DNA of 60,796 bases, counting the filler, from Hausera hauseri (taxonomy: Eukaryota), in assembly GCA_046269625.1 (NCBI GenBank). It is 11 parts of 11 records of this genome, joined end to end, with 100 filler letters (N's around TTAATTAATTAA, not from the genome) between each part and the next. Parts side by side here need not be neighbours in the genome. Positions count along the whole stretch, not along the records: positions 40,656 to 45,561 come from JBJURY010395256.1; 10 more parts are not named here. One strand, given 5' to 3'. Below, piece after piece: positions 19,398 to 48,885 of the stretch. The translations under genes and the position numbers were made by a program. Position 1 is the stretch's first letter. Each line of letters starts with the position of its first letter. The notes under the pieces were generated by a model, which was given only the letters and a program-made list of their open reading frames with translations, was not told where the DNA came from and did no database searches.

Positions 19398-19414
19398 TCC
19401 TGCTAGGGTCGTCA
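19398..19414 (-). promoter_or_regulatory. Primer-binding site of second gag copy; putative LTR begins at 19417 and runs rightwards
   Basis: Reverse complement TGACGACCCTAGCAGGA after TATAACA-TT; downstream leader resembles 860-925. Confidence 0.7.
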
Positions 19415-21313: not shown

Positions 21314-21414
21314 NNNNNNNNNNNNNNNNNNNNNNNNNNNNNNNNNNNNNNNNNNNNTTAATTAATTAANNNNNNNNNNNNNNNNNNNNNNNNNNNNNNN
21401 NNNNNNNNNNNNNA

Positions 21415-23777
21415 AAACGACCAGTCGGAAGACCAAGAAAAATAAAAGAAGTAGACTATAACGCAGATCTGATTAGGGAACTGAGACAACTATGAGTACC
21501 CACTCCAAGTTCAGATAACGAAGAATTGATAGAACTAATGAGAGATTTAATTAGGATAGTTAATTATACGGGACTACAAGGTGACATACTATCCGAGAAA
21601 GAAAGACTAATATATAATATAGCACGGACCATAAAAACTTCGCGATTTAAATTATCTAAAAGCACCCTCTCTGACGAAACAGTGATCAACAGAATTATGA
21701 CAGATAATACGACGGAAGAATTAAGGAAAGTCTTCATATATTTGGCAGTAAAAACTAATCCTCTCCGAAAAAATGAAATTGAAAGATCAATCGGGTTAGC
21801 TAAGAAAGCTGTGAGAAGGGTGCCTAAAGAAATAAAATGGGCCAAACTGTTTGAAAAAGAGTACAATGTGAAAAGGACTAATAACTTAGAAGACATGGTG
21901 CGGAACATCTCCTCACGTAAGGGGAACGAATCTAATTGGTTAGTCAATCTATTAACAATAATGATGCTAGTAAAACAAATAGGAGCAGTCACTATATACG
22001 ACTGCAATAAATTCAAGATGGGTCAGAGATATTCTCTAATGGATCTGGAGGCGTGCGAAGATGCCCGACCACACAAATTAGAAACCAGGGAGAAGAATTA
22101 CTTCTTATATCAACAACAAGAGCTGATATCATTAGACAGAATGGAATGCATGTTGCGACGATCTCGCAGAATCTTCCACTATGGGTTAATACACGGACAT
22201 TCTTCAATAATCAAACCGACAACTCCTCCAGTTCCCATGAACTTGGAACGACAGCACTGCAAACAAGCTAAAGAGACTGGAAGAGTACAATGGGACAATA
22301 TGGAATTAGAAATGCAAGCTGGTAAAATAATTAGAGCATACAAAGTGGTAGCCGGAAGGTTAGACATGCATACTGGACACTGTAGTGGAGCTGAATATGA
22401 TACTGGCAAAGGATTAGAACCAAATGTAGTAGTTGTGGATTTCTACGAATCAGAAATGAGAACACAGAAAGTAATGTTTCATAGCGTCACCAAGTTATAT
22501 ACGGAGAATCAGAAATGCCATTTACAAGATGGAACCTGTGCTTCTAGGAGCTCGGTTATAATATGGGAACCTCCCTCAGGAAGAAGCTGTAATTTTAAAA
22601 TTAAAGAACTTAAGTTTAATGAGACCACTGGAAAACGATACGTGGATAAACTGGATACCAACTCAAGGAAGCGTGAGGATGTATTGGAACATCTTACGCC
22701 CACCATATTAATCGCCGATCAACATGGACTAAAATTTATCAAGAATGAAATGATGTCACGTTGTTATGTTGTGATGTTTGCTACTAACTATGAAGCGTTC
22801 TTCGTAGCCGAGACTGAGATAAATGCGAGGACTTATAAGCTGGAAACACAAGATATCCGGATTGAGGACTATTTGGAAAATATAGACGATTATTCCTATT
22901 ACAAAGGACAAACTGTAATAACTGAGTTATACCACAAAATGATAACGAATGACTGTAAACTGGATTCTGAGATCATGAGGACAAAACGGGCTCTTACATA
23001 TGCCAATCCAGAACTGGCTTCTCCAATAATTCCCATGAAAGAAGGAATTTTCGGCCGAGTTATAGGCGAAGTACTATTAACTTATGAATGCGAAAAGAGA
23101 GATGTACCTATCAATGTGGAAGAGAAACGATGCATCCAGGAACTCCCAGTTATTTATCAGAACGTTCCTAGCTTATCTACACTATTAACGAGAGTATTAT
23201 TGGATAATGCAACCCAATTTACTGTCCTTAAAGATTGTAAAGCGAGCTTAGGAGAACCCAGGTTTAGACGTAGTGAGACAGACTGGGTCAGTTTACCGAA
23301 TGGAGGTATTACTGCCACCCCGAACAAATTAACAGGGACAAATCTTGCAAAAGAAATTACGGACGATAAATTTCAGGACACTTCATCGAAAGGCATATAT
23401 AGGCCTAAGGAGATTGAAGCCTTCAGACAGTTTCTCGCCTTTTCATAACAACGAACACATGAATTAAACCGAGCCATGGCCTCCGTAGTAGATGATACCC
23501 GATATCAAGCTAAGTGGGAATTTCTCCTTGGTGCTAATTACTACCAAAGAGTGACTTCAGAAATGTTGTACAAGATTTGGGAAGATTTTTAATTTTCGGT
23601 CAAGCTGCATCTGGATTCTTAGCCATCTACTTCTTAGTACAGTTAATTAAAGCAGTAATCCAGGCTATTATAAACGGATACGAAATATTCACATTGACAG
23701 GATTCTCCTGTAAGATTCTAATTGCAATTATCACACCTTTCGGAAAAATGCTCAAAGCTTACGAAGAAAACCGATGA
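21415..23777 (+). pseudogene. env: AT-hook + helical region + chuvirus/Monjiviricetes-like envelope fusion glycoprotein
   Basis: KRPVGRPRK in frame upstream of ORF 21526; hydrophobic LLTIMMLVKQIGA then IYDC...YSL.DL..C; GRVIGEVLLTYEC, CIQELPVIY, GIY, and TM FGQAASGFLAIYF. Stops at 21493 and 23446, frameshift near 23570. Confidence 0.8.
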
Positions 23778-24419
23778 AAAAACTATGTAGAACGCCATTT
23801 CGGATACTATAATCGCAAACGACGAGGAAAACCGTCAAATCTTTATGGACGTAAAAATAAAAGAATGGTAACACGAAAAAATGATTCGGATGATGACGAG
23901 TTCAAGGGAGGAGAAGGGAATTCTAGAGTAATGCTACACAGGACTTACGTACCGATACCTATCATCCCACCAACTGAGCCAATACAGGAAGATTGCTATC
24001 AGAAATCAGTCATATTCTATAGATCTGATATCTACCGAAAACCCATGGACCATGAAGACCCTTATGGGAAAACAAAACAATATGGGGTATTACGGAAAAT
24101 GAACGTTATCAACATGGTACCAACAGAAAACGACCACGGAATATTATACTCAAAAAGTATACCTCGTCACATAGAATCGAAATCAACGATTTAGGAGAAC
24201 CCGAGGTGATGCTCAATCTCAGGTCCCTTACCTCAAGAACCGCTCATTGACGACCGCGTCACGGAAATAACAAATAACGATTTGTACCCGAATGGAAAAT
24301 TAAGACAATTAAGGCAGGATATCATTTTATCACCAAAAATAACGATAATTGGACACTGAGTCTCCACTATCAAACGGCCAAAGATAGGTTCGAATTTCTA
24401 TGGAACAGTAGCGGAAGGG

Positions 24420-24720
24420 AGACCTTTCGCTAAAATACACATCGAAGATTGGGAAGTGTACGCACTAATCGACACAGGATCAGAAAAATCGTTTATAAAA
24501 TATGAATCGATACCAACCACATTGCGAGATCAGTTATGTCCACCCGCATCATTGGATCCCGGCAGCGTAGGAGCATTCGGACAGGTATCAAAGCCGAAAT
24601 TTAAGTGGACCCCTACAGTTTATATGATGGGCCAAGCAATTCCACATGAATTTGCAGTAACGGACTAATTAACAGATGACGTAGTACTGGGTTGTGACGT
24701 ATTAAAACAGATACCAGGTA
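24420..24720 (+). pseudogene. Retropepsin aspartic protease
   Basis: ALIDTGSEKSFI ... VVLGCDVL; one internal stop. Confidence 0.88.
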
Positions 24721-25139
24721 TGGCAATCGATGTGCATAATGGAAAATTAATTGAGCTCGAACCAATAAAAGGAACCATAGTAATAAAGGAATGGAAATCA
24801 GGCGAAGTATGGATTCCAGTAGATGAGGACATTCCGCCTAGAACTGAAATAATAATTTTTGCGCAGATTCGTCAAGATGAAGATCTACTGGTATATTTCA
24901 AACTGCAAGAGAATATCGATCCAAATATCATGCTTAGTAATATTCTATGTAGAGTAGTGACGGGACTAATACCCATCAGATTAGTGAACTGTGCACCAAC
25001 TCCCGTACGATTGCACTGTAACACTACTCTAGGTCACACTTGTAGGGTATCGGCGATAACAATTGAAGAAAAACCATACAAGTGCGCTGAATTTTCACCT
25101 CATGTTGAAACCAAATTCTCTTCCAAAGTGTATTGCAAA

Positions 25140-26530
25140 TTCTACGAATTATTATGTAAGTATAGCTCAATAATTGCACAAAATGAGGAAGATATAGGCA
25201 GAGCAAAAGTCCTGAGATTAACGATTCCATTAAGGAAGAAACCCGGCTCAAATGACAAAATCGATCTAGAGAAACAGAAAATGCCCAAGTGGTACCCGCC
25301 TCCTCATTCATTGAGACTAGAGATAACTAAAGAAGTAGAGCGAATGTTAAAGGCCGACATAATTCAACCAAGCTACGGATCATGGTGGTCGTCCATACGT
25401 ATGGTTAAGAAGAAAGGAACTACAAAACATAGGTTTTGTATAGACTATCGGGCGCTGAACACGCTGATGATGAAATACTCGTTTTCCCTACCATCAGTAA
25501 ACTAAGCTTTAGATAGACTATCAGGAGCAAAATGGTTTACCACTCTCGACTTACAGTCAAGATACTGGCAAGTGCAAATCGAAGAAGATCGATATAAGAC
25601 AGCGTTCAAAACACACGATGGTGTATACGAATTTAATGTTATGCCCTTCGGCATCACCACAGGACCAGCTATCTTTACTAGAATGATGAATAAGATGCTC
25701 ATGGGACTTGATCATGCTTTCGCGTACTTAGACGACGTGATGATAGCATCAAAAACAGAAGAAGAACATTTAAAGGACATTGAAGACACGCTTATGCGAT
25801 TAGAACAAGCCGGATTAAAACTAAATCCGAAGAAATGTAAATGGGCACAGAATGCAGTATCGTACCTCGGACATAGTTGGAGAAGGAGGATCGAAACCAG
25901 ACAAATCTCTACTAAATAAGATATCCGATTGCATGGAGCCGCAGAACCAAAAAGAACTAAGACATTGGTTAGGCCTGTGTGGGTATTATGCCACTTACGT
26001 ACCAGACAACTCAAAAATTAATGCACCATTATATCGCTTACTCAAAAAAGGAACTAAGTGGAGATGGACAGAAGTGGAACAAAAAGCATTCGATGAAATG
26101 AAGAAAGTTCTGATAAGCGAACCAGTTTTAAGATACCCAGACTTTATCCTACCATTCATCATTAAAACAGATGCGAGCAAAGAAGGCATAGGATACAAAT
26201 CAGCTCAAAAACGCAAAGACGCAGAATTAGAACATCCAATAGCTTATGGTGGACGATCATTGAAGAAAGCGGAAAAAATTATTCAATCAGCGAATTGGAA
26301 ACATTGGCAGTTAAAGAAGCATTACGACACTTTAATGTCTATGTATATGGACAAAGGATTATCATAGTGACTGGTCACAAAGCAGTTACTACATTAAAAG
26401 GACGAGCTAATAATCCAACATGTAGATTAAATCGTTGGATCGCGGAAATTTCACGATATAATATTGAGTTCCAATATAAACCAGGTATCAAACACGTTGA
26501 CGCCGACGCTTTGTCAAGATTAAAAACAAA
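25140..26530 (+). pseudogene. pol: Reverse transcriptase + RNase H
   Basis: RFCIDYRALN, LDLQSRYWQ, KTAF, MPFG, AYLDDV, TDASKEGIG, ETLAV, HVDADALSR; stops and frameshifts present. Confidence 0.95.
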
Positions 26531-26779
26531 AACAAATGCAATAACCACATTGAAGAAACCACAACTCGAACAGTTGATCGAACGACAAAGAACTCTAATA
26601 TTGGACAAGACGATTAGAATTACAGCTAAGCAGGCTAAAGATACGGTTATTCAGCAAATTATCGAGTTCGTACAAAACGACAAAATACCAAAAGGATGAC
26701 AACTAAAAAAGCAACTACAGAAACATGGACATAAATATCATGCAACGAATCGAGACAATATTTTGTATTACGAGCAAAA

Positions 26780-27900
26780 AGGAAAAAGATTAATAGTTAT
26801 TCCGAAAGGGTTGCGCATAGAAGTACTTATGGCCGAGCACGATTCGTATTTAGCCGGACATGGCTTGGAAGAAGACATTAAAAAGGATATTAAATAAATA
26901 TTACTGGCCAAGCATCTATATTGATGTAAAGAATTGGGCAGGAGCGTGCGAAGTCTGCGCAACAAAACAAAAGAAAACAAAAGGCTACGTAGCAGAATTA
27001 AAACCCATAAACGTACCAGATAGGCCTATGCAAGCCATGTCTATGGATATAGTAGGACCCTTGCTTAAAACTCACAAAAATAAGAGATATATTTTGACAT
27101 GTGTGGACCGACTAACGCATTTCGTAGAACTAGTGGCATTATTAGATCAAAAGGCAGAAACTTTGGCCGACGCAGTAGCAAGAAAAATCATCTGCAGATA
27201 CAGACCACCAGAACAAATTTTGACGGACAGAGGAAGGAACTTTACAAGCGAATTATTTGAAAAAATTACCAAGATATTTAAAATTGAACGATTAACTACT
27301 ACCGCGTATCACCCCCAATGTAATGGGATGGTCGAGCGAATGAACGCAACAGTTATTCGGATTTTATCAACAGTAGTGGCAAAGGACCAAAAAGATTGGG
27401 TGAATTCTTAGAAGGAACACAGTTCGCGATTAATACGACCCCACATCCAGCAACAGGATTTACGCCGTTCTTTATGATGTATGGACGAGAAGCAATGTTA
27501 CCTACCGATCTAGGCATGACCCCATACGAGAAAAACCTCGAAGATTTGGAGCAAAACTTTGCCGAAGTCTTGCAAACAAGATTGCAGAAATGTTGGGAAG
27601 TTGCGAAAATATTATCACTTGAATACCAGGAACAATTTAAAAAACACTGTGATAAAAAGATTAGACCTCATGATCTGGAAAGGGGAAATGGGGTTTATAT
27701 ACATTACCCAGTTGCAAAGAAAGGTACATCCTTAAAATTGACACGTACCGGAAGAGGACCGCATGAAATCGTCCGTACAACTCCAAACACAGTCTATGTA
27801 AATAGAAATGGTAAAGAAGAAGTCGTATCGATTCAAAGAGTAGTTAATACAGATATAAGGCCATCTAAACATTACAATCTAAGACCGCGAGAAAACCTCA
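26780..27900 (+). pseudogene. Integrase (HHCC + DDE core + GPY/F-like tail)
   Basis: HDSYLAGH...CEVC; MDIVGP, TDRGRNF, YHPQCNGMVERMN; TPFFMMYGRE; GRGPHEI; YNLRPR. Confidence 0.95.
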
Positions 27901-28143
27901 TCAATTATCACCAGACCAATATCATACGTTCAGATAATCCTAGCACTATCGCTAATCGCCTCTTATTTTCCAAAAACACAAGCTAGATGATGGTACGACA
28001 AATCCATCTTAGAGAATGGACACGAAACGCAAAAGAATGAGATAAATAAAACCCAAAGACAAAAAGATATGACGTCGTTACAATCCATCACAGTTCCGTA
28101 TTATTCGATGAACTCTACATGCGTTGAATTTACAATATAGAAA

Positions 28144-29293
28144 ATGTACCATGATTCCGGAAGATTTCAAATTGCCCTAGATGATATACTGAAAAAAGGA
28201 ACAAGGAATTGTGATTTCGGACCTAGAGAGCATAGGAAATATTGCATTACGGAATTCGGGAATACTTATAACCTTACTTATCTGCTGTATTCATCAAAAT
28301 TATCTGAAATCTATAAAATGAAACCGCAATTTCAATTAGTTATTACTGCTTGGAACAAGCATCATGGGATAAAACCTAACGAAATGCTCCAGTCCATCAA
28401 CCCAGTAAAGCGGATGCTAAAAGAAAATATTGCCAGTAATTCAGAGAACCCAAGGACAATTGTGTTCAAGTAAAAACAAAAGGACGACTAATTAATGGTC
28501 GAGTAATCTCAGTCCGGTTCCTGAAAGAAAACATACAAGCTCACAATCAACAATACTGCCAAATCGACGTCGAACAACCAACAATATGTTGCAAGTTACC
28601 ACAGAAATATGAGTATAGAATTCAGCTAGATTTATATAAAATCAGAACCAACCAGTCAAGTATTTATTTGGGAAGCTACCGACTCAGAAATCCAGTTAAG
28701 TCGAATTTATTTAATATGACGACGAATGCGGAAATAAAGCCCATTATTCCGGCATTAATGAGAATTACTGCAGCGAATAAATCATCTCAAAAAGAACTAG
28801 AAATAATTCCGGTAAAATACCGGACACAGCAGCGTGAAATAACTTTTGTAGTAGAAAAAGCACTTAATTACGACGTGAGGATAAGCTGCCAAACATCCTA
28901 TAATAATCAGAAAGTGATATTGACAAAAGGGAATGATCGAATCAAATGTGCTTACTTGAAGCCTGAAACAGATTACATTGTACAAATGGAAGCAGAGAAT
29001 AGACAAAGTAAACCGTTCACGGTACGGACCTTAAACAAAATTGTTTCAATAAAATATTAACCGAGGACGAAGCGGAAGATGAAGTGACAACTACTGTTAA
29101 ATTAAAAAGTTCGACCGAACAAGCAATTTTTCCGTTAATATCGATTATTGAAACATTAATGTTCGCTCTCATAATCTTAATTGCGTTTTGCCGATTGATT
29201 ACCAAAAACTGTTGTATTAAGCGACATAAAATCTATGAGAGGGAATTAAGGGTGATGTTACCACAGGATGAAATTAATGATGAAATAACCTGA
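28144..29293 (+). pseudogene. Post-integrase ORF with fibronectin-III-like motif and C-terminal TM segment
   Basis: YLKPETDYIVQMEAEN matches FN3 L.P.T.Y.V.V.A.N; IIETLMFALIILIAFC is hydrophobic and followed by basic residues. Confidence 0.5.
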
Positions 29294-29394
29294 AAACTAC
29301 AGATTGGGTTATTCCACCATCAAACAAAGAATTGGTTCAAATTTCGAGCAATACTTTGTTTTAGGATCGACCCTTATTTTGTATTTTTTTCAGA

Positions 29395-30921
29395 ATGGTA
29401 AGTACGAGCAGCCGACCTAGAATCGACAATTTCTTACAACAGTATGGAACAGTTCTTATTCCAAAATCAAAAGGGATATACCACCGAATTAACGATGCAC
29501 TACGGATTGAAATACATGTCGAATACCGAAAAGTAACTGACATACCCAATGATCTAAAGGGTACTACCGAAGATAACCGCATGGTTTCACTATACGCAAT
29601 GAGAGATAATCACCAGGCTATGTCATATGACCTGAAAGAATTAATCCAAAGTAAAACGATCAGAATGGAAAACGTATTCATACACTTGGCAGACGGGGAA
29701 GTTTATTACAGAATTAAGAATCAACAATTGGACGGAAACGAAGGGCGCCAATATACATTCAGCACATTTAAAATAAGCGGAAAGGGTCTAGAAACCATTT
29801 ACTGCGGATTAGAATTTAGAGTAGCAGCGTTACCTGTCAAGTTGATGTTCGAAGTGACCTACAAAGAGAAGTGCAACTTAGGTTTGCCGGTTCTAGAATT
29901 TGAACAGACTCCAACAGAACAAGAAAAAGACAAACATAAGCAAGTGTATAGATTAGTTCAGGATGGACGTAATATAAGAATTATAGCAATAAATTGTGGC
30001 AGAGGAGATGATGGATATGGAATACCCATCGAGATATCTGTCAGAGAGAGAAATGGAACAGAGATATATTCAACGATCATAAACCCTCGAAAACATGTCC
30101 AGGAATCATATGCAGAAGTGACAGGGTTAAGAAAGGATCAGTTAATAAGCGGAACGGATATCTATCAAGTACGCTCAGAGTTGGAACATTGTCTGTATGG
30201 TTGCATGATAGCCGGCTATTACGTTCAACATGAGATGAAGCTATTAGGGATATCCGATGCAAATATTGCCGGATTTAGGGAAATAGCCTCTCATCCGATA
30301 GTCCAAGAACGAATGGAAAAGATTATACAAGAAAAAAACCGACCAACCGCACCAGAAGCCTTCTTTAAGATGACCATCGAAGCAATGAGCGACAACCCAA
30401 GTAAAATACCAAGACTTCTGACAGCTAGCCAACGGTCCAAATATTTACAAGAAATCTATCTCAAGCTGAAATGGGAACACGAATGGACTCCTAAGAACCC
30501 CACGCAAAATCTACGCAGCTCTATAAACCCTGAACAGATAGATGGAAAATATAGGAAAAATATAAAACTTTATTCCCCAATTCGAACCATTCAGTTTACG
30601 GACAAACATAGCCTCCAGATTACTGTACCAGAACAAAGAACTGAAAACAGGATGGAATCATTAACAATTAGAGAAAAGGAAAAGTTACTACCAGGAACAT
30701 CAAAGCCCCCAGAAGAACGAAGAGAAGAAATAGAACCAACAACAATAAGTAAAAGGATGAAAATAGAAGAGAAACCCAAACCCAGAAAAACATTATCCAT
30801 ATACAACTACCTATTCAAAAGGCGGAAGACAGACGAAGGACAAGAAATAGAAAACCCGCAGAATCAACCAAGCACTTCTCAAAACATTAAGCCGTTAAAA
30901 AAGGAATTAGGAATCCCATAA
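29395..30921 (+). CDS. 508-aa ORF containing a degenerate REX4/ISG20-like DEDDh exonuclease fold
   Basis: IIAINCG...EISVRERNGTEIYSTIINPRKHVQESYAEVTGL...L.GCMIAGY...HEMKLL parallels VAIDCE...RVS....G..IYDT.V.P...VTDY...VSGI...L.G.ILVGH....DL..L. Confidence 0.55.
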   Translation: MVSTSSRPRIDNFLQQYGTVLIPKSKGIYHRINDALRIEIHVEYRKVTDIPNDLKGTTEDNRMVSLYAMRDNHQAMSYDLKELIQSKTIRMENVFIHLADGEVYYRIKNQQLDGNEGRQYTFSTFKISGKGLETIYCGLEFRVAALPVKLMFEVTYKEKCNLGLPVLEFEQTPTEQEKDKHKQVYRLVQDGRNIRIIAINCGRGDDGYGIPIEISVRERNGTEIYSTIINPRKHVQESYAEVTGLRKDQLISGTDIYQVRSELEHCLYGCMIAGYYVQHEMKLLGISDANIAGFREIASHPIVQERMEKIIQEKNRPTAPEAFFKMTIEAMSDNPSKIPRLLTASQRSKYLQEIYLKLKWEHEWTPKNPTQNLRSSINPEQIDGKYRKNIKLYSPIRTIQFTDKHSLQITVPEQRTENRMESLTIREKEKLLPGTSKPPEERREEIEPTTISKRMKIEEKPKPRKTLSIYNYLFKRRKTDEGQEIENPQNQPSTSQNIKPLKKELGIP

Positions 30922-31449
30922 TAACAGAAATCAATGCCTTGATAGGAAAAAGAAGCAAAGAGGATGTACACTTTAAAACAAATCAAGAATTTCCGAGGAT
31001 GCTNNNNNNNNNNNNNNNNNNNNNNNNNNNNNNNNNNNNNNNNNNNNTTAATTAATTAANNNNNNNNNNNNNNNNNNNNNNNNNNNNNNNNNNNNNNNNN
31101 NNNTACGTTTGTCCCGGTTATTGTTCTATAGTTGATGAAATCAACTATGAACAATTTTATAACCAACACAAGGACCACTTACACCAGTTTTAGCGGTCCA
31201 AAAAGATAATATTGATGGCGGCAAGAAAAACCAGTATCCTCTCAACAAGTAGGAAACGTCAGGCCTCAACAAGTCTTGACGACTTAATCCGAAACAGTAC
31301 GAACAGAAGCAGCAGCAGATGCAACAGAAAAAACCTTCCATTGATATCCTGTACGATCTAAACCAATCATATGTGGACCTGAAAGTAAACATGTCGGGGA
31401 AAACATCAGTACAGCTAAGGCATGTTCCGTCCATTGTGAGCAGCCGATT

Positions 31450-34400
31450 GCAATTAGAGGTGGAGAAATTCAAACTCAACAACTGCAAAGCGCAATATTA
31501 TGCACTTGAAGAATTTGAAAAACGTTAAAGGTGACAGGAAACAATGGTATCTGTCACATTGAGCCGTTCCGTATTGGGAAGGTTTTATTGCCAATGTAGG
31601 CAAAAAGTTGAATGAAAAAATCGCCAAATATACCGAAAATGGGTAGTGGATGGCGAATTTTATGAATTCTTACACTCGGCTTTATCATAAAAAAGTCCAG
31701 TGACGTGGTGTATTTGTCTGGACGATCATTTGTCTCTAAAGCGGTCTCTGGCGATAGTGAATGTACAAAATACTGACGATGACGACGAATGCTGTTTTTT
31801 GTACAGTATTCCGGCTGTACTGAAGTACAGCGAAGTGAACCGATATCACGCAAATTGTCCAAATAAGTATCGGCAGTATTTTTCGATTTGCAATTTGATG
31901 AATGCTGGATGCCGATGAAACTGAAAACCATTCCGGCTTTTAAAAGGTGTAATCCGGCGCTGTCAATCAACGTAATATAAATAGTATAATATAATAGTAT
32001 ATATATAATAGTTGAAATACCGGAAGACGAAGAAATTTATAATAATCCCCATGTGGACATAATTTATCGCAGTCGGAACCGAACGGACGCTCGGGAAATT
32101 TGTTGCTGTTAGAGCAGGCGGAAAAATTTCATTATGCAGCAGTGACAAATCTGGATAGTCTGTTGAACGTGGAGCATGACCATTTCATCAAAAAGCAAAT
32201 ACGATGCAAATGGTGTCCTGTATGTCTGCATGGATTCATATCGGAAATAACTAGGGAGAAACACGTTACGCTATGCAGGCAAGAAAATGTGCATCATGCC
32301 TGTTAAAAAGGAGCTCGAATTCAGAGATAGGTCTAAAACGGACATTCCTGCATATATCGAAGCAGTTCTACCACGACACAATGTATACGATGAAAAGCAC
32401 GTTCCAATTGCCATTGGTACGTTGCTAGTACCAATAAAAACCGCCAGACAAACGCAGTATTGCATTTTCCATGGTTGGAACAGTGTACGTGATTTTCTGC
32501 AGCAGTTAGAAACCATAGTGGAAACGGAAGTCTCGCCGTGGTATCGCAACAATTGCAATAAGCCATTGATTTGGACAGACGAATATCAACCGTTGCTTTT
32601 CGCTGTCACCAACGAATGCTACCCGTGCCACATAATATTACCGTTTGATACACAGGAATGGCTCGTACGGGATTACGATCATTTTGCCGGTCGATACTTT
32701 GGGGCAGCATGCAATTCATGCAATTTAGCAAGGCGAGTGAGACCATTCCTGCCGGTGATCTTTCATAATTTCCGAGGTTATGACTGCCACCATATTCTCA
32801 AATAGGCAATTAACGGCTTTCCGCACTGGAAACTGTCCATAATTCCAACGACAATGGAGAAATACCTATCGCTGTCAGCAAGAGTAAACCGATTCCAGGT
32901 ATGCATACTTCATTTATTGCAATTTCTTAATGAATCATTGGCAAAGCTGGTAAACGCCTTGCCAGATGTGCCGATAGCACTTACGCAGTTCCCTGCACAT
33001 ATTGCAAGCAAAAAAGGCATATTTCTATATGACTTTACAACATCATATGAGCGACTCCGGAGAAGCATCGCAGGCATCGCAGATAATGAATATCGGAGAG
33101 CAGAAGAATCTTGAACAGAACTGGGCTATAGAAACATGTTGGATTACATGTCCAGTACCTTAAACTGGATGTGTACTTATTGTTCGATGTGTTTGAAGCA
33201 TTTCGGACCAAAGCGTTGGCGAAAGATAGGTTAAAGCCACTCAACTTTTATTCCATACCAGAAATGAGTTGGACGTCAGCTCTAATGTCACTGGATCGAG
33301 ACATTGAGCTGCTGCAAGACCCGGAAATGTACCGTCTGTTTGATGTTTGTATTCGCGGCGGCATGAAATTTGTCAACAAGCATCAGGTCCGTACTACCGA
33401 TACCGCATCACTGCTGAATATTGATATTAATAACCTGTAAGGCTAGGCGCTTTCGCAACCCTTGTCGTACGGTTCATTTGAATGGGTAGTCTACAGACAA
33501 GATCTGGACGACATAATTGTCAACCTACCACGAGCAGACATGTCAGGCTCAGTCGGATACCTGATAGAGGACGATCTCCAGACAGCAGATGATCTGCATG
33601 ACGTTTCGGACGATTTTCCGGTCGCACCATTTAACGAATGTCCGTCAGACTCAAAAGTGAAGAAACTGTTCATGACGCATAAACCGAAGTTGAATTACGT
33701 TGTCCATTGGCGTCTGCTACAGTTCTAAATGCAGCTCGGTGTACTCGTCACACAGTCGCATCGTGCAATCCGATTTTCTCAGGCTGCCATATTCAAGGCA
33801 TACATAGATGGAAATTCGGAGAAACGAGCCGCAGCTTGTATAAAGTTCGAAATGGACTACTGCAAGCGGAAAAACAATTCTGTGTGAGGAAAAACAGTGG
33901 AGAATCTGCAAAAGCCGCTCAGTGTACGACTATGCAATAGAAAAAAGCGGTTGGTCAAGTACACGATTAAGGCGCAGTTTCGGCGGTAAGTAGACTGCCA
34001 AAGGATTGGTTGCGGTGCTGTTAAACAGAGAAGAAGTCATTCTGTACCAGCCAAGTCACATCGCACAAGTTGTATTGGACCTGAGCAAGTTGCACATGTA
34101 TGAGCTACAGCATCGCGACTTGGCACGTTACCGACAAATGTCTGACGGCTGAAATATTGACATAATTTCCGGTGACACAGACAGTTTTATCCTGTTGCTG
34201 AAAAACGTCAATCGCGAACAGCTATTGCAGCAAATGCAGTCAGATGGATTACTGGACACTTCCAACTACTCACCGGATCATTCGTTATACAGCAGCGCGA
34301 TCACCAATAAAATCGGCTGCTTCAAGGATGAAAGTGAAGGTCGCGTTCAGTATCGGGAATGGATATATCTACGGCCAAAATATTACAGCCTTCTAACTGA

Positions 34401-36550: not shown

Positions 36551-38991
36551 GTCATTAGTCCATGTGGACACCAACCATAAGCTTATACGGTAAGGCATTT
36601 ATTTACTTAATTTTATCTTTATGCATCCATCCATTTAGGGTGCTAACTGCCATCTTTTGTTTCCAAGGTACAACATCGTGATATTTGGTGGAATAGATGG
36701 GTACTCAAGAAAGGTTTGTCACCTTTTATTGGAGTGTTTTATTATATACACGTTTGTGTTCATGTATTCACTATCTGTTAAATGCAAAGGAGTTACCCAC
36801 ACAGTTCACAGACATTAATAACAAATTGTTAAATTGGTCATAATGTTTTATTATAATTTACTCTATTGCTTCAAGTAGATGTCAGATGACAATGATAGGG
36901 ACCAATACTGGTTCACAGACCACTATCACTCCTGCTCAGTGGTCTTCTAGTGTGGTTTCCTGTATATACTCCTTTAAAATTAAAAAGGAAAAGGAGTCGC
37001 ATTTAGAAAGACTTCAGTATTTAGGAATACTGTATTAAGGAATACAGAATGTTTTTTTGAGATTTTGGTCAATCATATGTAAAGTAATATAGTGGTAAAA
37101 GGGAGGGGACAAGAAGATAATGAGAAGAATGAGAGGTCAAGAGTATCAGGAGGATGATAAAAGCAGGAGGGAAAAGGAATGAGAGCAGGAATTCAACATT
37201 CTACAACTTATATTCTGAACTTTAATCAGAATTTTGTTAATTCTAATTGATTTCTATGACTGTGAAAACCATGTACCCTCAAAGTACATGCTAAATCATG
37301 TATCAGAAAGCTTATTTCAATTACTACCATTATTTTTGTAATTATGCTTTTGGTTCCATATTTTTAACTATTCCCTATGTTGCTTGGACTTCTAAATTTT
37401 CTCCTTGAGATTAATGAAAAATATTTTTGTCTTTTTTGTTTTTGGCCTAAGTGTTCTGCGTCCCCGATTGAAAGAGTATTTTTAATTGTGTTTTTATACA
37501 GATTTTTTATCTGGAACCATCAACAAATAACCGCTCAAGCACTGCTCATTCATTTTTTATGAAGGGAGTTGAAAACTATGGCTGGCCTTCCAGGTAAAGA
37601 ATGATATAAACTTGGCCTATTGTTCCCATGCTCCATTTACTCGTTTCAGTACTGTCTAATGGAATATTTTGTTATGATGCAGATGACTGAACATTTTTCT
37701 CATGTATTTTCAAGGGTTAGGGCCGACGAAGGTGTTGAAAATGTCTCCATTGCTGAAACCATGTTCACTGTGAAAGGCACTGGAAGAGGGAGCTTCATAG
37801 CTGGGCGGAGTGTACATAATCAAAGGTTAGACTGTTATTTCACATAATTTACAGGATGTTGATAGTAAGATGTAAAATGGGCAATAATTATTGTAAAGTA
37901 TTTTCTGTAACAGTTGAAATGATCAGTTTTCAGTTGAATAATACCTGCTTCTGATCTAGAATTGAGCGCCTGTGGCGCGATGTCTGGACCAGCGTGACAC
38001 ACATTTTCTATGAAGTTCTGCACAGTTTGGAGGAAGATGGCCTGTTGGATTTGGCAGATTCTGTTCATCTTTTCTGTGTACACTACATTTTCGTTCCGCG
38101 TCTGGCAGAGGCCCTGCATACCTTCACAGAAGGCTGGGACAACCATCCCTTAAGGTCAGAAGGTGGACTTTCGCCAAACCAGCTCTGGGTTTTGGGTCAC
38201 ATGAAGAACCCTTGTGACCCCGACGAAGATCTGCAGGTTTGTTAAAGCTCAGACTTGGAAGTGCTGTGGCTAAAGGTTAAGTGCAGGGGACAACTTTTTA
38301 ACCTGTATATGTGGAAGCTGCAGTTTAAAAACAGTCACATTTATTTTAATTGGAATGGAATAAATATCTTCAAAAGTGTGAAAACAGTAGGCAACAAGAT
38401 AAAAATTGAGCAAATTGTTGATTGATAAACAAGCATGTTTGTGAAACTTTATTGAAGTGTTCACACAAACGGAGAAAGTCAGCAAGGCAAAATTTGATAG
38501 ATGTAACATGTATGATTGGTGCACTTTACTCACCGGTCAAATGGTTTTGGTGTCAATGGACTATTCCTGTGTTGGTCAGTATGTGCATTGATCTTTTTAA
38601 ATATTTTGTTTGTTTGGTAGCTTAATTGCCTCTATCTATATTTTACTTATACAGTCCTAATTCACTGTGCATTATTGTGCTGAAAACCTTTCAATGAGAT
38701 GGGCAGTTATTCTATGGAGCTAACAAGTGTTGTTTTATGCTTTTTTTTTGCTTTTTTTAGAACATGGAATCATTTGGAACTGACTGGGAGATGTTTGATG
38801 CTGTGCCTGAGGAACCATATGGAGTTCAAGTCCAGGAAACTGACTGTCCTCTGAATCCACATATCATGGAAAGTGTTCAGTCCATGATAAATCCATTGGC
38901 ATCTTCAGAATCATTTGGCAGAGACATTTACATAACAATGGTTCACTGCATAGAAAGTGTAAGGGCAACAGAAGAAATGTCTGAGATATAA
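36551..38991 (+). CDS. Spliced DDE integrase-core (rve / IS3-IS481-like) protein, 5' part missing or interrupted by the hAT
   Basis: Exons [13 protein letters not shown] | [15 protein letters not shown] | IFYL...YGWPSR | VRADEGVEN...[15 protein letters not shown] | IERLWRDV...[18 protein letters not shown] | ...; GT-AG introns. Confidence 0.8.
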
Positions 38992-40655: not shown

Positions 40656-42199
40656 GGTTTATTCTCACTAATGTAGGGTGAGAATACCTCCAAAGCGAAA
40701 ATTACTGCTAATAATTCCTTTTCTATTACCGAATATTTCGTTTGATGTTTGTTTAGTTTCTTTGATGCATATGCCACAGGATGCTCCTTGCCATCCTTAT
40801 CTTTTTGCGATAATACTGCTCCAACTCCATAATCGCTTGCATCCGTTGCCAATATAAAAGGTTTAGTCATGTCTGGATACATGAGAATAGGAGCATTTAG
40901 CAATCTTTCTTTTAAATCATTGAAGGCATTTTGACAATCATTATTCCATAGTACCTTTTCTAGATCCTCCCGTAACAATTCGTAGAGCGGTCGAGCTATC
41001 TTACTAAAATTCTTTATGAACCTACGATAATAATTTACCAATCCCAGAAATTGACGTAATTCTTTTACTGTCGTTGGCTTTGGAAAATCTTTTATTTTTC
41101 CTACTAATCTATCCTGAGGCTTTACGCCATTTCTGTCCACTCGATGTCCGAGGAAATCCACTTCCGCTTGGGCGAACATACATTTCTTTGGGTTTATTTT
41201 CAAACCCATGATTTCACATCGATCAAAAAGGTCCTGTAAATCCTTCAGATGTTGTGGAAAGTCCGACGATGCTATTATCACATCATCGATATATACCATG
41301 GCATGTGGTGCATCCAAGAGTAATAGTTCCGTTCCTCGTTGAAATGTTGGCGGTCCATTTTTTAATCCAAATGGCATTCTATTAAATTCCCATAGCCCTT
41401 CTCCTATTGAAAATGCTGTTTTAGGTTTATCTTCTTCTCTTACCTCTACTTGCCAATATCCCTTTTGTAGATCGATGGTGGTAAATATTGTTGCACCATG
41501 TAACCTATCCAATATCTCATCGACCCTTGGTAATGGATAAGTGTCGGTTTCTGTTACCTCATTAAGTGCCCTATAGTCAATACAAAATCTCATAGTACCG
41601 TCTTTCTTTTTGACCATCACCACTGGAGCCGTCCATGGCGAGCAGCTTGGTCGTATTATTTTATTCTCTCTCATTTCTTTGATAATTTTTCGGGCCTCTT
41701 CCTTTTTATCGTACGCCAGTTTATAAGGCCGTTTTTTAATCGGCTTATCTTGTCCCTCCTTTAACTTAATAACATGTTGGATGATATTCATTGTCCCTAA
41801 GTCATAATCATTTTGGGCAAACCGGTTATTATTGTTTTCTAATAATTGGCACAGCATTTCTTTTTCGTCCTCTGATAATATCGTAGAATTTTGCAATTTT
41901 TCTCTCCAATTAATCATATTCATTTTCTTTTCCTTATTCCGGTTAACATCCAATTTTAATTTTTTTGACATCATCTTTTCTATCTTATCTGTATCTGAAA
42001 TAATTGACTTGGTCTCTTCTCTGTGTATTTCTTCAATTGGCGTTATTACCCCAAGTCTAGTATTCATTTTTAATCGTTTTTCTTTCGTTCCTATGTTACA
42101 GATTCTTAAGTGGACTCTTCCATTCCTTATTTGGTCCACATGTGGTGCCACTAAGATATCGTATTTCTCCATTACATAGAGAGATGGCTCAAAATACAC
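40656..42199 (-). CDS. pol: Ty3/Gypsy reverse transcriptase + RNase H (truncated by contig end)
   Basis: SPWTAPVVMVKKKDGTMRFCIDYRALN, IDLQKGYWQ, MPFGLKN, VYIDDV, TDASDYGVGAVLSQ, YSVIEKELLA; offset from the upstream ORF at an A8 run. Confidence 0.95.
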
Positions 42200-45100
42200 T
42201 GATCTTTCCGGGATTTTTTTTCTATTCTACCAGGCACTATTATTTCTGAACGTGGTGGGATGATACTATCTTCTATGAGTGAGACGGTTTCTTCGTATCT
42301 CTTTTTGTTAAACTTTCTAAGTTGGCCTGTCTTAACGTCAATATATACATCCTCTAACTGGTGCAATACGTCGCATCCTAACAGTATTTCGTTGGTTAGG
42401 TTCTCGGCTACTCTTATAGCATGCTTTATCACTTGGTCACCAATTTTAATCTTAGCATCTAAAACCAATTTTATCTCCTCCTCCATTCCAAATGCTCCTA
42501 CATTAATTAAGGTCTCTTCGAGCTTTCGTAGTTTACTTTTTAATTCTTTGGGAACTTGGCTTCTTCCCATAATTGTGGTTGTTGAACCCGTGTCTATTAG
42601 GGCAATTAATGGATGTCCATTTACTTCTATTTCTATCTCAGGTCTCGTATATAAGGCTTGGTTTTTCGAACTTACCGTACAAGTAACTTCACGATTATAT
42701 TGTGTAGGGTTCTCGTCGTAATCCTGTTTTATTCTTAGGATTTGATATGTGGGATACATTCCCCCGTGTTTTACATACTGCGGAGCCGAGGGGTTCATCG
42801 GCAATTGTTCATTGTATACCTGCCCGTGGTATTCATCCGCGGGATTTAACTGAGGTAAGTCGGTTACTAACTTCCTTTGGTATTTCTGTTTACGGGGTTT
42901 CAGCGACAACCTTTTTAATCCTTGAATGTACCTATTACTTTTAGGTCTCGTGTCTACATCATCGTCGCCGCTCCTTCCATTCAAGGTGCTGTAAGGCGAA
43001 TTGTTATCGGCCCTGTAATTTCCTCCTTTAGTTATTTTCTTCTTCCACCTTGCATCATGGTTTGCTAGAAAACAACTGGCTACTGCTGGTATCACCGCTA
43101 TAAGAATTTTCCACGAACATCCGACTGCTGCGTGTATTCCGTAGGCTTTTCCTAGCGCCGTAAATACTGTCCGTATGGCACTTATGATAAAATATATTGC
43201 CAAAAATCCCGATGCTGCCTGACCAAAATATAAAAACTTTCCCCACATTCTTTCCATCACATTTCTTGTAACCTTCTTCAAATAATCCTTTCCCATTAAA
43301 TTTTCCCAATGTGGGGAACCTTCTCCATCCCACATTACTTTTCTTGTTAGTTCCGTTATTATCCGTTGTCTTTGTTGAGGGAATAATAACATCCTTCGAT
43401 AATCCTCTAAATTTTGTTGCGTGTAAATACCTCCTTGGGATATACCCGTTAGTGGTTCGAATTTTTGATTTCTTTGTAAACTGATCAGACTTAAAGTTTC
43501 TGGTCTTGTCACTTCTTCTCGCTTTGGCATTCTAAACCACTTATCGTTTATCTTAAACATAGGTGACATATTAAATGTGCAATTGTCAAGTTGTGTGGGT
43601 CTTGCTTTAGCATCTAGTAATATACGAGTTACTGGTATTACATATCGAGGTTCCATATTATAGATCACCGGCAATTCTGAGGTACATTCTTCAGTCTCTC
43701 TAATTGCTACCTCTACCTTCTTGCATTCAATTGTTATTAATACTTCACCCATTACTCGCCCAATTACTCCGTCTCCGAAGGGCATTACCGGGGCCACCAT
43801 ATCTGGGTTCGTTATTACTAACGCCATCTTATTGCGTATTATTTCGTAATTCAATTTACATTCGTTCAGTATTATTTCTCTGTACAAATTTCTTATTTCT
43901 CGTCGTACATAATTAATCAAATAGTCTATTTTATTATCAAAATATTGGGTTACTTTTATGTCTTTCTTATCTATTTTTGTTTTTGCTTCTGCTACCTCTC
44001 TCGAAGAGAGATATAGTCCTTTGTAATTAGTCTTAAACATTTCTTCATTACATTTATTTATTACTCCCATAATTCTAAAACGCATCATTTCCTCGGGGTT
44101 CTGTGAATATACTACTGTTGCCACTTCCATCATTTTCACTTCTTTGACCCCTTCTCTATAAGTTGCTGTTTCCTTCTCAGCCGTTTTCCCAACCGTTTTA
44201 TTAAATTTCCCTTCTTTCAACAAAGTCAGGTGGCAACGGTTCGCGGATATTTCCCATGTCATCTTAGATTCCCCTGTATCACACTCTCCACTTTCGTATT
44301 CACATTCATTCATTATTGTCATGAGTCTCGTTTGTGAATCGAACAATCCTTCGTACTCCTTTAGTTGTACTTGATAATCCTCGATTGCCACCGTTCTTGG
44401 AGCAATTGTTCCTCCAACATCGTAATCTACTCCCTTACACGTACCTTCCATTGTCTTATCTATTCTTCCTGCTCTAAAAATTCTAGTATACTTTATCTTT
44501 CCTCGTACAGCTGGTATCTGAGCATTCTGTACTGTTATGATTCCGATTTTAAAAGCATCTTGGCATTCAGCCCGTGATATTATTATTGGCTCAAAAGGGG
44601 TCGTGGGTTCAATAATTGCTGAATTTCCTGAATAGTATGCGCAATTGAATAAGAAAAACGACTTCTTTACATAGCACTCTCGTATCTTAACTTTTATGAA
44701 TTCTGACTCCTGATACACCCAGTATCGGTGACCACTGGTTGTTGTTAATTGCTCTGGGTCCGCTTCAGGGCATTTCTCTAGGTCTATTAGCGAATACTTT
44801 TGCCCTTCTTTTGGCTTTGAACAATCATAAGCTACCATTCCCATAGCCTTAGGCATACATAGCGAGGCTATAAGTAATATTTGTAATACCTCCATAAACG
44901 ACATTCCTCCGAGACCGTGCTTATTAGCACTGGGTTGGGTTGTGGTTGGTCTCTCTGGTATTTCTCTCTCTGATCTTAGCCTGCCATTCATTAGACTAGG
45001 TATCCATCCTCCCCTGCATTGTGCCCAGTTTTCTAAAGTATCACGTAAGATTTTAACAGTGGTTCTTATATTTCGTTCAATTTCCTCCAGATTCTGTGTC

Positions 45101-45561
45101 TGATAATTTGTTACTATTACTTTATATATTAGATAAGCTATCACCGTAACAACTTTTTCCCTAGTGATCCCCGTAGCAAGCATCTTCTCTACTATATCCT
45201 GCTCATGTACTTCGTTAATTCGTTCCTCATTAATGTTTTCGTAAAATTGTCTGCTAACTCTCAGCATGCTATTCCGTAGCATTTGAAATAACTCGTCGGG
45301 GATAGTTATCTGCATATCAAATGATGCGAATGACGTATGAAGTTTGGCTAATAGCGTTCTTAGTAATGGATCTATATCCACCGATTCCGGTGTCGTATCG
45401 GTTCCTGCCAACAATAATCGTCGTACAATTTCCTCATTTCTATCCTTTTTATTTCTAATGTCACTTATCTTTGTTCCTTTTGGTCTTCCTTTTCTTCCTT
45501 TTTCTGTCTGTACCGTAACATCTTGAGTATCAGCGAACAATGGTCCTTCCCTTTCTTGAGG
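42172..45561 (-). CDS. env: Uninterrupted polyprotein: AT-hook - helical region - signal peptide - chuvirus-like fusion glycoprotein - TM - aspartic protease; open to contig edge
   Basis: KGRKGRPKG; LQILLIASLCMPKAMG|MVAYDC...YSLIDLEKC; GRVMGEVLITIEC, CTSELPVIY, GGIYT, FGQAASGFLAIYF; LIDTGS ... ILLGCDVL in the same 1122-aa frame. Confidence 0.88.
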   Translation of the reverse strand, partial: PQEREGPLFADTQDVTVQTEKGRKGRPKGTKISDIRNKKDRNEEIVRRLLLAGTDTTPESVDIDPLLRTLLAKLHTSFASFDMQITIPDELFQMLRNSMLRVSRQFYENINEERINEVHEQDIVEKMLATGITREKVVTVIAYLIYKVIVTNYQTQNLEEIERNIRTTVKILRDTLENWAQCRGGWIPSLMNGRLRSEREIPERPTTTQPSANKHGLGGMSFMEVLQILLIASLCMPKAMGMVAYDCSKPKEGQKYSLIDLEKCPEADPEQLTTTSGHRYWVYQESEFIKVKIRECYVKKSFFLFNCAYYSGNSAIIEPTTPFEPIIISRAECQDAFKIGIITVQNAQIPAVRGKIKYTRIFRAGRIDKTMEGTCKGVDYDVGGTIAPRTVAIEDYQVQLKEYEGLFDSQTRLMTIMNECEYESGECDTGESKMTWEISANRCHLTLLKEGKFNKTVGKTAEKETATYREGVKEVKMMEVATVVYSQNPEEMMRFRIMGVINKCNEEMFKTNYKGLYLSSREVAEAKTKIDKKDIKVTQYFDNKIDYLINYVRREIRNLYREIILNECKLNYEIIRNKMALVITNPDMVAPVMPFGDGVIGRVMGEVLITIECKKVEVAIRETEECTSELPVIYNMEPRYVIPVTRILLDAKARPTQLDNCTFNMSPMFKINDKWFRMPKREEVTRPETLSLISLQRNQKFEPLTGISQGGIYTQQNLEDYRRMLLFPQQRQRIITELTRKVMWDGEGSPHWENLMGKDYLKKVTRNVMERMWGKFLYFGQAASGFLAIYFIISAIRTVFTALGKAYGIHAAVGCSWKILIAVIPAVASCFLANHDARWKKKITKGGNYRADNNSPYSTLNGRSGDDDVDTRPKSNRYIQGLKRLSLKPRKQKYQRKLVTDLPQLNPADEYHGQVYNEQLPMNPSAPQYVKHGGMYPTYQILRIKQDYDENPTQYNREVTCTVSSKNQALYTRPEIEIEVNGHPLIALIDTGSTTTIMGRSQVPKELKSKLRKLEETLINVGAFGMEEEIKLVLDAKIKIGDQVIKHAIRVAENLTNEILLGCDVLHQLEDVYIDVKTGQLRKFNKKRYEETVSLIEDSIIPPRSEIIVPGRIEKKSRKDQCILSHLSM

Positions 45562-46019: not shown

Positions 46020-47900
46020 GAAGACAACTTTCACCTTTGAAGCCCTAAATTCGCCGCCGTATGTTGATGCACCACGTATTCAACTCCACGCGAGGAGTGT
46101 TCAACGTCTTTTCTCGTTCGTTAAATATTTGAACTTTCTTCTCCAATTCCTTCAGTTAGGCCCTTAGCTTCTCTCTCACCATCCGAGTGTCCCACAATGT
46201 TATACAGACATAGGTTCGAACCATATAAACATTCACTTGTTATCCGAAATCTTTTAGTTCTAACATCAGTTGACCTTCTCGACTCGGTCAAACGTTTTCT
46301 TATCTCACTTTTACTCGATTCAGAACCGTTCAATTTGGATTGAAGATTGTTAGTCAGACATTTTAAATAGACCACGTATTTTCGTTGTCTTCCTTATTTA
46401 ACTTTGTTATCAGGACCAGCCCTAGTTCTCCCTAACACATCCAATGTACTGCGAATCCAGAAGAATTGTGTCTTAGACTATTCGACTCGAACTATATATT
46501 AGGTTAAGTTCTCAACCACTACTACACCCTTATCAGCTATTTGGGACATAACAATCCGAACAACTCCCCGTGAAGACGATTGTACACCTTTGGGTAATTT
46601 GTTCAACCTTGATTTAATATAAATTTTTTATTCTTTCTCTTTTACTATCTCTGGAAATCCACTTTCTTTGCTGTTAGTATTCTCGTCACTCTCGCCTTCT
46701 TGCAACTCTCCTTCGTTTACCTAGATTCCATCCACCTTCTCTTGAACTACACATGGTACAGTTTTCGACTCTTCTACCTTTTCCATTTTTAGGTCTTTTG
46801 AAAGGCATTTTCGGACGTATGGCGTCGGATTTTTTCACTATCGTTTCCCATGTGTTCTCTACATTCGTACTTTTTGTTAACGTTTTCACAATGATGTGAG
46901 TTGTAGTCACTTCGGAATCAGATACTCTCCTAGGTGGTTGGAAACTCACCCAAAGTTTAAATTCAGTTAGACACCAATCCACGAATTTTATAAAGTTCCT
47001 ACGTTTGAGTTCAACAATCGATTGATTAACTTATTTTCGAGAGTTTTTCCCACGATACTAAATTTCACAACACATGTATTGACCATAACTCAAACCACGG
47101 GACACCATCTGACCACGTTTTTTAAACCACGACCTTGTGGTCACACTTGTGGACATGGCGTTATAACACATTCTGGATGTTGACAGTAATGATGTACGAC
47201 ATGTGATTGAAGAATGTATTTGGGAATAAGGAACAACTCCAGTACACAACTGATCGATGTCTGCATTAGGTGTAGGATCGAATCTTAACGAAACAATTAC
47301 ACAATTAATTTCTCGAGCCATAACTTGACCTAGATTAATGTAAGTTAGGCAATTTATGTCTAGAAAACTACGGTGAGTGGTACAAACGGCCTTGTTACCT
47401 ATTGTAATTGTGAAGATGCAATTCTGTACTGACCAGACGAAACCTAACACTTCATCACGAGGTTTAACTACTGAAGTTAACAAATTCGAGTTTAGGAATA
47501 CGATCAGCTGGAATCCGTTTCGTTTCGCGTAATCAAATGTCGATACTTCAAGTATTAAGGCTATAAAACCCAAATTTATAGATCCATGACAAATGAAAAT
47601 ATCACGTGACATTTCTTGATCTCACCAAACTTTCCCATAACATTTGCTATGATATCGATCTGGTGTTTACTAATTACGAAAAGTACCCTTGTGAAATCAT
47701 CGGCCCCATCGTCCAAGGATAGGAATAACTGAATCGGATGAGATAAACCCTTATATGACCTCGTTCTGGTTTCGTTAACCACTACTGACTCCATATCATA
47801 ACTGTGATGAATCAACTCAATTAAACGTTACCCAGTCCATGTTTTCGTTATCTTATTTGTCATCCTTATTTTCTGTGGATCATTATCAATGACCTTGTCT
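46020..47900 (-). pseudogene. Decayed coding-like region of unknown family
   Basis: Several minus-strand ORF fragments (47058-47612, 46686-46982, 46121-46375); no recognisable motif. Confidence 0.25.
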
Positions 47901-48419: not shown

Positions 48420-48526
48420 TATTAAGCAACTTTAGAGAAATGTTATCATGAATTTTCACATTCTTAAAGCTTACCTTTGTTTAAATAGTATGCATATATT
48501 TATACTCTTTTGTTTTCTTTTTCAAA

Positions 48527-48885
48527 TTACGGATAAGTTGGAATATCGAACAGTCATTAAATTTCGCACCAAAAAGGGGTTAAACAGCAATGAAATCCTA
48601 CATGAGTTGGTGGTCGTATGCCAAGCTGAGGCTTCTTCAAGACACACAGTCGAGCAGTGGCATCATGAATTCCTACATGGCAGAGTCAACCTCCAAGATG
48701 ATGAACACACTGGAAGGCCAACCACCAGTAGTTCAGAGCAAAATGTTCTTGCTGTTCAGCGCATGGTGATAAATGATTCTCTGGTGAAAGTCAAGGCGAT
48801 TGTAGAGACTCTTCATATTTCAACGGGTACAGTTCACTCCATCCTCCATGATCATCTAAAGATGAGTAATGTTTGTGCCCAATAA
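48527..48885 (+). pseudogene. Mariner (Mos1-like) transposase N-terminal HTH fragment
   Basis: EYRTVIKF...W..EF..GR.NLQDDEHTGRPTT...LHISTGTVHSILHDHLKMSNVCA; catalytic domain absent. Confidence 0.85.

Follow-up and report, generated by a model that had tools for sequence, protein, structure and literature searches.

A probable Burro-like Ty3/gypsy fragment from Hausera hauseri joining a Bcl-2-like domain, a predicted class III fusogen and a protease in one reading frame

We analysed a window of 60,796 nt from the eukaryote Hausera hauseri (GenBank assembly GCA_046269625.1), which is made of 11 contigs joined by spacers of 100 N, and followed up one of them, JBJURY010395256.1, a single contig between spacers at 40656-45561 (positions are those of the whole window). 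It is best read as an internal fragment of a slightly decayed copy of a Burro-like Ty3/gypsy retroelement, in which a Bcl-2-like domain, a class III fusogen (env) and the protease (PR) lie in one frame and would likely be made as a single polyprotein threaded through the endoplasmic reticulum (ER). We put the probability of this reading at about 0.8.

A long frame from AT-hook to protease

On the minus strand, a frame without stops runs from the contig edge at 45561 down to a stop at 42172-42174 (Table 1). The first-pass annotation had described one such frame, open to the contig edge; it stands, with 1129 codons and not 1122. The order of AT-hook, signal, cysteine-rich ectodomain, transmembrane segment and LIDTGS protease in this frame is recovered as well by sequence, hydropathy and Pfam. 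Reverse transcriptase (RT) and RNase H (RH), which had been placed after the protease, are both present, not in the long frame but in a second one (40658-42226), while a Bcl-2-fold domain at residues ~63-192 of the long frame had been overlooked. The aspartyl protease occupies residues 972-1070 (Pfam, E 5e-10). The order PR-RT-RH in this contig, with integrase (IN) following RH in another contig of the window (hereafter contig 21414) and in relatives, is that of Ty3/gypsy (Metaviridae), and the best RT matches of the element are gypsy-type pol.

Table 1. Features of the element and of a second family member in the window
Feature	Position	Strand	Basis and remarks
Long frame	42172..45561	-	1129 codons, open at contig edge; AT-hook, Bcl-2-like, signal, env, membrane segments, linker, protease
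AT-hook-like GRP motif, residues 21-31	45469..45501	-	Sequence
Predicted Bcl-2-fold domain, residues ~63-192, BH2-like W-x4-GGW, degenerate BH1	44986..45375	-	Pfam, phmmer, model, Foldseek, VIA-align
Internal signal sequence, predicted signal-peptidase site before residue 242	44839..44910	-	Hydropathy, family pattern
Predicted class III (chuvirus G / herpes gB-type) fusogen ectodomain, residues 242-775	43237..44838	-	Pfam, AlphaFold, Foldseek
Membrane region, segments 785-803 and 815-833, then basic stretch	43063..43209	-	Hydropathy
Retropepsin protease (LIDTGS)	42352..42648	-	Pfam PF13975/PF00077
PR-RT linker, possibly dUTPase-like, holding the frame break	42030..42300	-	tblastn switch at 42217
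RT core (YIDD), second frame	41138..41614	-	Pfam PF00078, E 5.5e-33
RNase H, truncated at contig end	40658..40948	-	Pfam PF17919, E 6.7e-39
Second, decayed family member	21414..31003	+	AT-hook, weak Bcl-2-like, env, PR, RT, RH, IN, then 3' open reading frames including an exonuclease-like one

The envelope ectodomain

The ectodomain, with 14 cysteines, lies within a match to Monjiviricetes_fusion (PF24664) at residues 224-841 (E 6.5e-95). The AlphaFold model of residues 242-775, built from a 60-row alignment, has a mean predicted local distance difference test score (pLDDT) of 90.8 and a central helix of 48 residues. Searched with Foldseek, this model finds herpesvirus gB as its best solved structure in PDB (E 1.2e-14, TM-score over the query, TMq, about 0.4) and chu-like glycoproteins as its best viral models in BFVD (E 1.9e-38, TMq up to 0.73). 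The chuvirus-type class III fusogen proposed in the first-pass annotation is thus borne out by Pfam and by the structural comparison, and the ectodomain is, as modelled, a fusogen fold of the chuvirus/gB type.

To place the env, we used a midpoint-rooted tree of 64 ectodomains that excludes family fragments and seven members that are short or partial. In it, the 17 envs borne by retroelements of the family group as a single clade on a branch of 0.84, apart from the 47 other glycoproteins, with a support of 100 in the Shimodaira-Hasegawa-like approximate likelihood ratio test (SH-aLRT); among those outside is P0065, a G that is linked to BEL/Pao and carries DUF5641. Because the retroelement envs make a single clade on a long branch and the BEL/Pao G stands apart, the tree points to a capture that is old and distinct from the Anakin event of mosquitoes, and not to a recent chuvirus insertion.

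The Bcl-2-like domain

Several methods agree on the domain that precedes env. PF00452 (Bcl-2) matches residues 89-186 with E 8e-6, and BOK ranks first in a phmmer search against PDB (E 1.3e-3). The model of the domain (pLDDT 74.6, six-row alignment) brings up only the Bcl-2 family in all 41 Foldseek matches listed (best E 2.4e-3), and an exhaustive VIA-align search gives the Bcl-2 fold at ranks 1-30 (Z 9.4 to 5.6), the top match having a root-mean-square deviation of 3.0 over 114 aligned residues. For helical domains, Z values of this size are modest, and the weight lies in the agreement between methods. ESM Atlas matches also belong to the Bcl-2 clan throughout (score 0.79), which we take as a lead only. 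A profile from one alignment (A1) had no match in PDB because env columns dominate it. On these models, residues ~63-192 are assigned the Bcl-2 helical fold.

The domain is clear before env in 7 of 24 family sequences, the same seven that built the profile, and weak in two (L002 and contig 21414); the remaining 15, among them several fragments, gave no sign of it. The BH2-like GGW is retained. The canonical BH1 of BH3-binding Bcl-2 members is NWGR, and its glycine is required for BH3 binding. This motif is absent here: the window element has TREK at the position, all seven aligned members lack Trp-Gly, and BOK itself carries TWGK in the phmmer alignment. Since the Trp-Gly is missing, a non-canonical role is the likelier one, and the domain would more likely bind proteins as a modulator or scaffold than block apoptosis through a classical BH3 groove.

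Relatives of the element

In what follows, P-numbers are database proteins, P0001 being the window element's own, and L001-L004 are loci fetched from metagenome contigs. From 1258 matches of a database protein search, 17 best representatives were taken, and 11 of them hold env and protease in one chain, the other six ending earlier. Five chains (P0005, P0009, P0017, P0019 and P0153) continue from env through RT, RH and IN. Gag, env and pol share one frame in L002 (3703 codons), L004 (2693 codons) and P0019, and the frame of L001, 3426 codons long and open at its 5' end, holds env-pol, so that the env-pol, possibly gag-env-pol, polyprotein of the first-pass annotation is found in relatives, whose chains run from 2693 to 4844 aa. 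The closest protein, P0003 (46% identity over residues 16-559 of the window protein), joins gag, CCHC, a ubiquitin-like stretch, AT-hook, Bcl-2-like domain and env in one chain. An AT-hook-like motif also lies upstream of env in P0003, P0005, P0007, P0008, P0153 and L003, and at the start of contig 21414.

The env-family scan of metagenome contigs gave at least four loci (L001-L004) among 595 candidate stretches, and the family was found in none of 158 candidate stretches from viral contigs and none of 28 from genome contigs. A whole-protein word search returned one relative only. Within the window, contig 21414 is collinear with L001/L002, its env is 32% identical to that of the window element (tblastn), and the env tree makes the two sisters (SH-aLRT 93). 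The RT-RH tree, of 126 rows, groups the RT of the window element with five unnamed pol proteins and four chains of the env-pol type (SH-aLRT 93).

Read depth also fits a large repeat family that keeps env: 10,098 contigs of read set X1 lie on the stretch, where every one of the 30 bins has a summed depth of 267-44,463; a host-gene contig reaches 5-10 in its non-repeat parts. These figures were obtained at different identity thresholds and are not a copy number. No RNA read set was listed as containing the stretch, a result that has no bearing on expression. X1 is possibly the window's own source and so gives no independent support. Among 40 of the 848 listed read differences, third positions account for 17 of 28 in the long frame and 3 of 12 in RT, a sample too small and too selected for dN/dS (the ratio of nonsynonymous to synonymous rates).

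Several side features of the family were seen as well. Two decayed gag regions in the window (capsid-like, Asn-rich, CCHC), at 1-5284 (+) and 16797-19450 (-), are 72-78% alike in DNA, and both have matches in gag from L002, L003 and P0003, the lowest E being 3e-16; judged by sequence, they are probably 5' parts of the same Burro-like family. A ubiquitin-like stretch was noticed by eye at 5018-5284, with no Pfam match. A separate 3' open reading frame (ORF) for a DEDD/RNase_T exonuclease occurs at 29365-30921 (+), L001:10617-12104 and L002:12085-13470 (Pfam E 1.4e-5 in L001 and 1.1e-3 in L002; the window ORF matches that of L002 at E 1e-9), and stretches similar to it were seen by eye upstream of env within P0015 and P0017. 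In L001, L002, P0005, P0009 and P0153, and at 28440-29060 of the window, the chain goes on past the integrase into a further signal-like segment, repeats rich in beta structure and a final membrane segment, which may form a second membrane cassette. Three to seven tandem protease-like domains are found in P0153, P0007, P0004 and L001, and P0153 (4844 aa) has ankyrin repeats and C2H2 fingers as well. P0009 (HBK71150.1), a full env-pol polyprotein, was deposited as a hypothetical protein of a Flavobacteriaceae metagenome-assembled genome; this assignment most likely reflects eukaryotic contamination.

Probable kinship with Burro, the frame break and the env-protease junction

The layout has a published counterpart. 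As far as the account of Arkhipova & Yushenova (2019; PMC6431247) covers them, Burro/GYPSM1 are giant Ty3/gypsy elements of the planarians Schmidtea mediterranea and Dugesia (after Jurka 2007 and Grohme et al. 2018, cited there), more than 30 kb in size, with one ORF of 4,900-5,100 aa in the order gag-ubiquitin-like-BCL2-env-PR-dUTPase-like-RT-RH-IN and an env that resembles mononegavirus fusion glycoproteins. The window element likewise has env in frame between the Bcl-2-like domain and the protease, and its env is related to mononegavirus-type fusion glycoproteins by Pfam and Foldseek. The single ORF from gag to integrase is seen in relatives L002, L004 and P0019, the window copy being without both ends. 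The first-pass annotation had taken the element as an independently enveloped lineage and the layout as undescribed; the latter is not supported, as Burro/GYPSM1 already holds an in-frame env between BCL2 and PR. In substance, a family with this layout is on record by architecture, both there and among the gB-type GAG-ENV-POL elements that Chary & Hayashi (2026; PMC13524379), in the part of their work concerned, report from Nematoda, Bryozoa and Platyhelminthes.

We find it unlikely that the element is unrelated to Burro and converged on an env 5' of pol through its own capture of a chuvirus G. Such convergence would agree with the POL tree, as presented in PMC13524379, in which GAG-ENV-POL elements are not one clade. 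It sits badly with what the two have in common, namely BCL2 before env and a ubiquitin-like stretch further upstream (weak Pfam matches in P0003, L003 and L002 with E of 0.03, 0.005 and 0.018), and with P0153, whose ankyrin repeats and 4844-aa chain are as in Burro. By eye, moreover, the env motifs and cysteine spacing are shared with six Schmidtea sequences (Smed_errantivirus_1-6, group C1a), and not with the nematode and bryozoan GAG-ENV-POL env sequences, so far as the sources give these sequences.

The second frame overlaps the long frame by 55 nt, and the switch between them falls at a run of eight A (sense strand) at 42214-42221, where tblastn alignments with relatives also change frame. 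Since the run has the form of a slippery heptamer and leads into a -1 frame, we considered a programmed -1 ribosomal frameshift, by which the window lineage would make less RT-RH-IN than Env-PR, and rejected it as quite improbable. The break lies inside a conserved linker domain, and the frame is continuous there in all ten relatives that were selected because they have env, PR and RT, as well as in contig 21414; the predicted structure 3' of the run is not stable (z 0.20), and a near-identical contig of another read set (X2) differs by one gap at the run. Taken together, the continuous relatives, the unstable structure and the X2 gap make decay or an assembly slip in the window copy the most likely cause of the break. 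A profile of five linkers has no Pfam match, and its best match in PDB is a dUTPase with an E of only 0.43.

The join of env and protease is not a misassembly, a possibility raised at first pass, because it recurs in contig 21414, in the 11 proteins counted above and in the fetched loci. That a chuvirus glycoprotein landed by chance in a gypsy copy as an endogenous viral element (EVE), or that the contig is chimeric, is therefore very improbable: chuvirus G EVEs often lie near gypsy fragments, according to the relevant part of PMC10084718, the contig is short in a repeat-rich assembly and no listed read-set contig spans the whole stretch, but this reading is already refuted in substance by the same in-frame junction in many divergent relatives (30-46% identity) and in the second window contig, by the long branch of the retroelement env clade, and by near-identical contigs that bridge the env tail and linker at 42767-43077, one of them of 311 nt with a single difference and a depth of 146 in X1.

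Some observations weigh against the Burro-like, single-polyprotein reading. The window copy is broken before RT, and neither gag nor integrase nor a long terminal repeat (LTR) was found within 40656-45561. LTR-sized repeats were also absent from L001, L002, L004 and contig 21414, which are probably too short to reach both ends. Five relatives (P0004, P0007, P0008, P0011 and P0012) end after the protease domains, at a place other than the frame break, and in L003 a stop separates env from the Bcl-2-like domain. For the Bcl-2 fold, the Pfam match is under the gathering score, one of the six rows in the folding alignment (P0015) is misaligned, and all Foldseek E-values exceed 1e-3. In the trees, the supports of 93 fall under the tool's mark of 95, and the env-pol chains P0017 and P0019 lie outside the window RT group. 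Membership of the Burro-like family would follow from architecture and by-eye env similarity, not from a tree with Burro. Finally, P0001 has two hydrophobic segments after the ectodomain; a passage of both through the membrane would put the protease in the lumen.

Membrane segments and a possible polyprotein mechanism

A hydrophobic, signal-like segment lies at residues 225-243, and 17 of 17 computable family members have a hydrophobic core ahead of the ectodomain. Small residues at -3 and -1 are the signal-peptidase pattern; at the predicted site, -1 is small in 17 of 18 members and -3 is small or aliphatic in all 18. The release of the fusogen by signal peptidase, suggested at first pass, fits this conservation. 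After the ectodomain, 18 members were examined and the region was not found in four. In the remaining 14, the first segment always reaches a Kyte-Doolittle hydropathy over 19 residues (KD19) of at least 1.79, and the second reaches at least 1.6 in only two; in P0001, basic residues follow the second segment. The simplest reading of these profiles is one net membrane crossing after the ectodomain, which would leave the protease cytosolic.

On this topology, translation of the element would likely yield one Gag-accessory-Env-Pol polyprotein that passes through the ER membrane. The N-terminal part (Gag, ubiquitin-like, AT-hook, Bcl-2) would stay cytosolic, the internal signal would start translocation, and signal peptidase would cut before residue 242, the cleaved signal staying at the C-terminus of the upstream product, which it would anchor in the membrane. 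The ectodomain would fold in the lumen as a gB-like trimer, presumably able to fuse membranes, and the single net crossing would bring the chain back to the cytosol, with PR-RT-RH-IN beginning on the cytoplasmic tail of Env until the element's own protease frees Pol. Gag, Env and Pol would then be made 1:1:1 and meet at the membrane, with enveloped particles able to fuse with other cells as the outcome. If signal peptidase separates Gag from Pol during translation, Pol would be packaged only by riding the Env tail. We offer, as a tentative idea that we hold to be possible but doubtful, that Burro-like elements are an obligately enveloped lineage beyond planarians, in which Pol is packaged via the Env tail and the cleaved signal anchors the Bcl-2-fold domain so that it ties Gag to the same membrane; the window would then hold a member that has spread to high numbers in an animal newly recognised as a host. 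A model of Pol processing from the Env tail was not found in the one literature search made for it.

Other features of the window

A gene for a lysophospholipid acyltransferase (MBOAT) at 9956-12000 (+) has short introns, 33-40% identity to its seven best matches and a depth of 5-9 in X1. Decayed fragments like DNA polymerase B of the Polinton/adintovirus type were seen by eye at 19800-21200 (-) and 31104-33000 (+), and endonuclease VII matches at 32251-32805 (Pfam E 1e-3). Further features, in the order of the positions 48436-48885 (+), 57132-58604 (-), 46686-47621 (-) and 9397-9855 (+), are remnants of mariner-like and of pogo/Tigger-like transposases, both judged by eye, a tubulin-like sequence in decay (Pfam E 2e-5) and an ORF for a RING finger (E 6e-8). 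A degenerate TTCG-type simple repeat of about 7 kb fills 49726-56677. The contig at 35901-40555 looks unlike the others of the window and has an integrase-core-like ORF at 37955-38245, of a kind presumably present in fish genomes; this contig may come from another organism, and the window contigs may be of mixed origin.

Comparison with known systems

Compared with Burro, as described in the part of the literature used above, the element shares a BCL2-like motif, env and PR in one frame, then a linker that may be dUTPase-like, RT and RH. Its relatives show the single ORF and add ubiquitin-like and ankyrin modules, and a high copy number is a further likeness. It differs in being known from a 4.9-kb fragment broken before RT, in having one protease where some relatives have several, and in that no MATH, BIR, Smc or midasin-like modules were seen in it. 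Smed_errantivirus_1-6, the 'ancient errantiviruses' of Platyhelminthes C1a, also have env 5' of pol and a gB-type ectodomain in the records at hand, and the likeness in motifs and cysteine spacing concerns domains I-II, as judged by eye and not by computed identity. The main text of Chary & Hayashi (2026), as available, has no mention of in-frame fusion, Bcl or Burro.

Anakin, described in part by Dezordi et al. (2020) as mosquito BEL/Pao elements with a chuvirus G at the 3' end, has a glycoprotein of the same Pfam family as the window env, but it combines BEL/Pao pol with a 3' G, whereas the window element has gypsy-type pol, a 5' env and a separate env clade. For arthropods, the relevant part of Dezordi 2023 (PMC10084718) reports no clear capture of chuvirus G by gypsy elements. 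The Bcl-2-fold proteins of poxviruses and herpesviruses (CNP058, BHRF1, A46/A52/N1) resemble the window domain in placing this fold in a virus-like agent; the window domain differs from them as a module of a retroelement polyprotein, closest in sequence to BOK, and its family is without the BH1 glycine/arginine in all seven aligned members.

In conclusion, the layout is already published and the element is thus not the discovery of a new system. It adds a divergent member and about twenty relatives to the Burro-like family, a conserved internal signal-peptidase pattern in that family, and support from structure prediction for env as a class III fusogen of the gB/chuvirus type and for the BCL2 motif as a full Bcl-2 fold with degenerate BH1. 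It also makes testable how Pol is packaged by a retroelement that holds a membrane protein between Gag and Pol.

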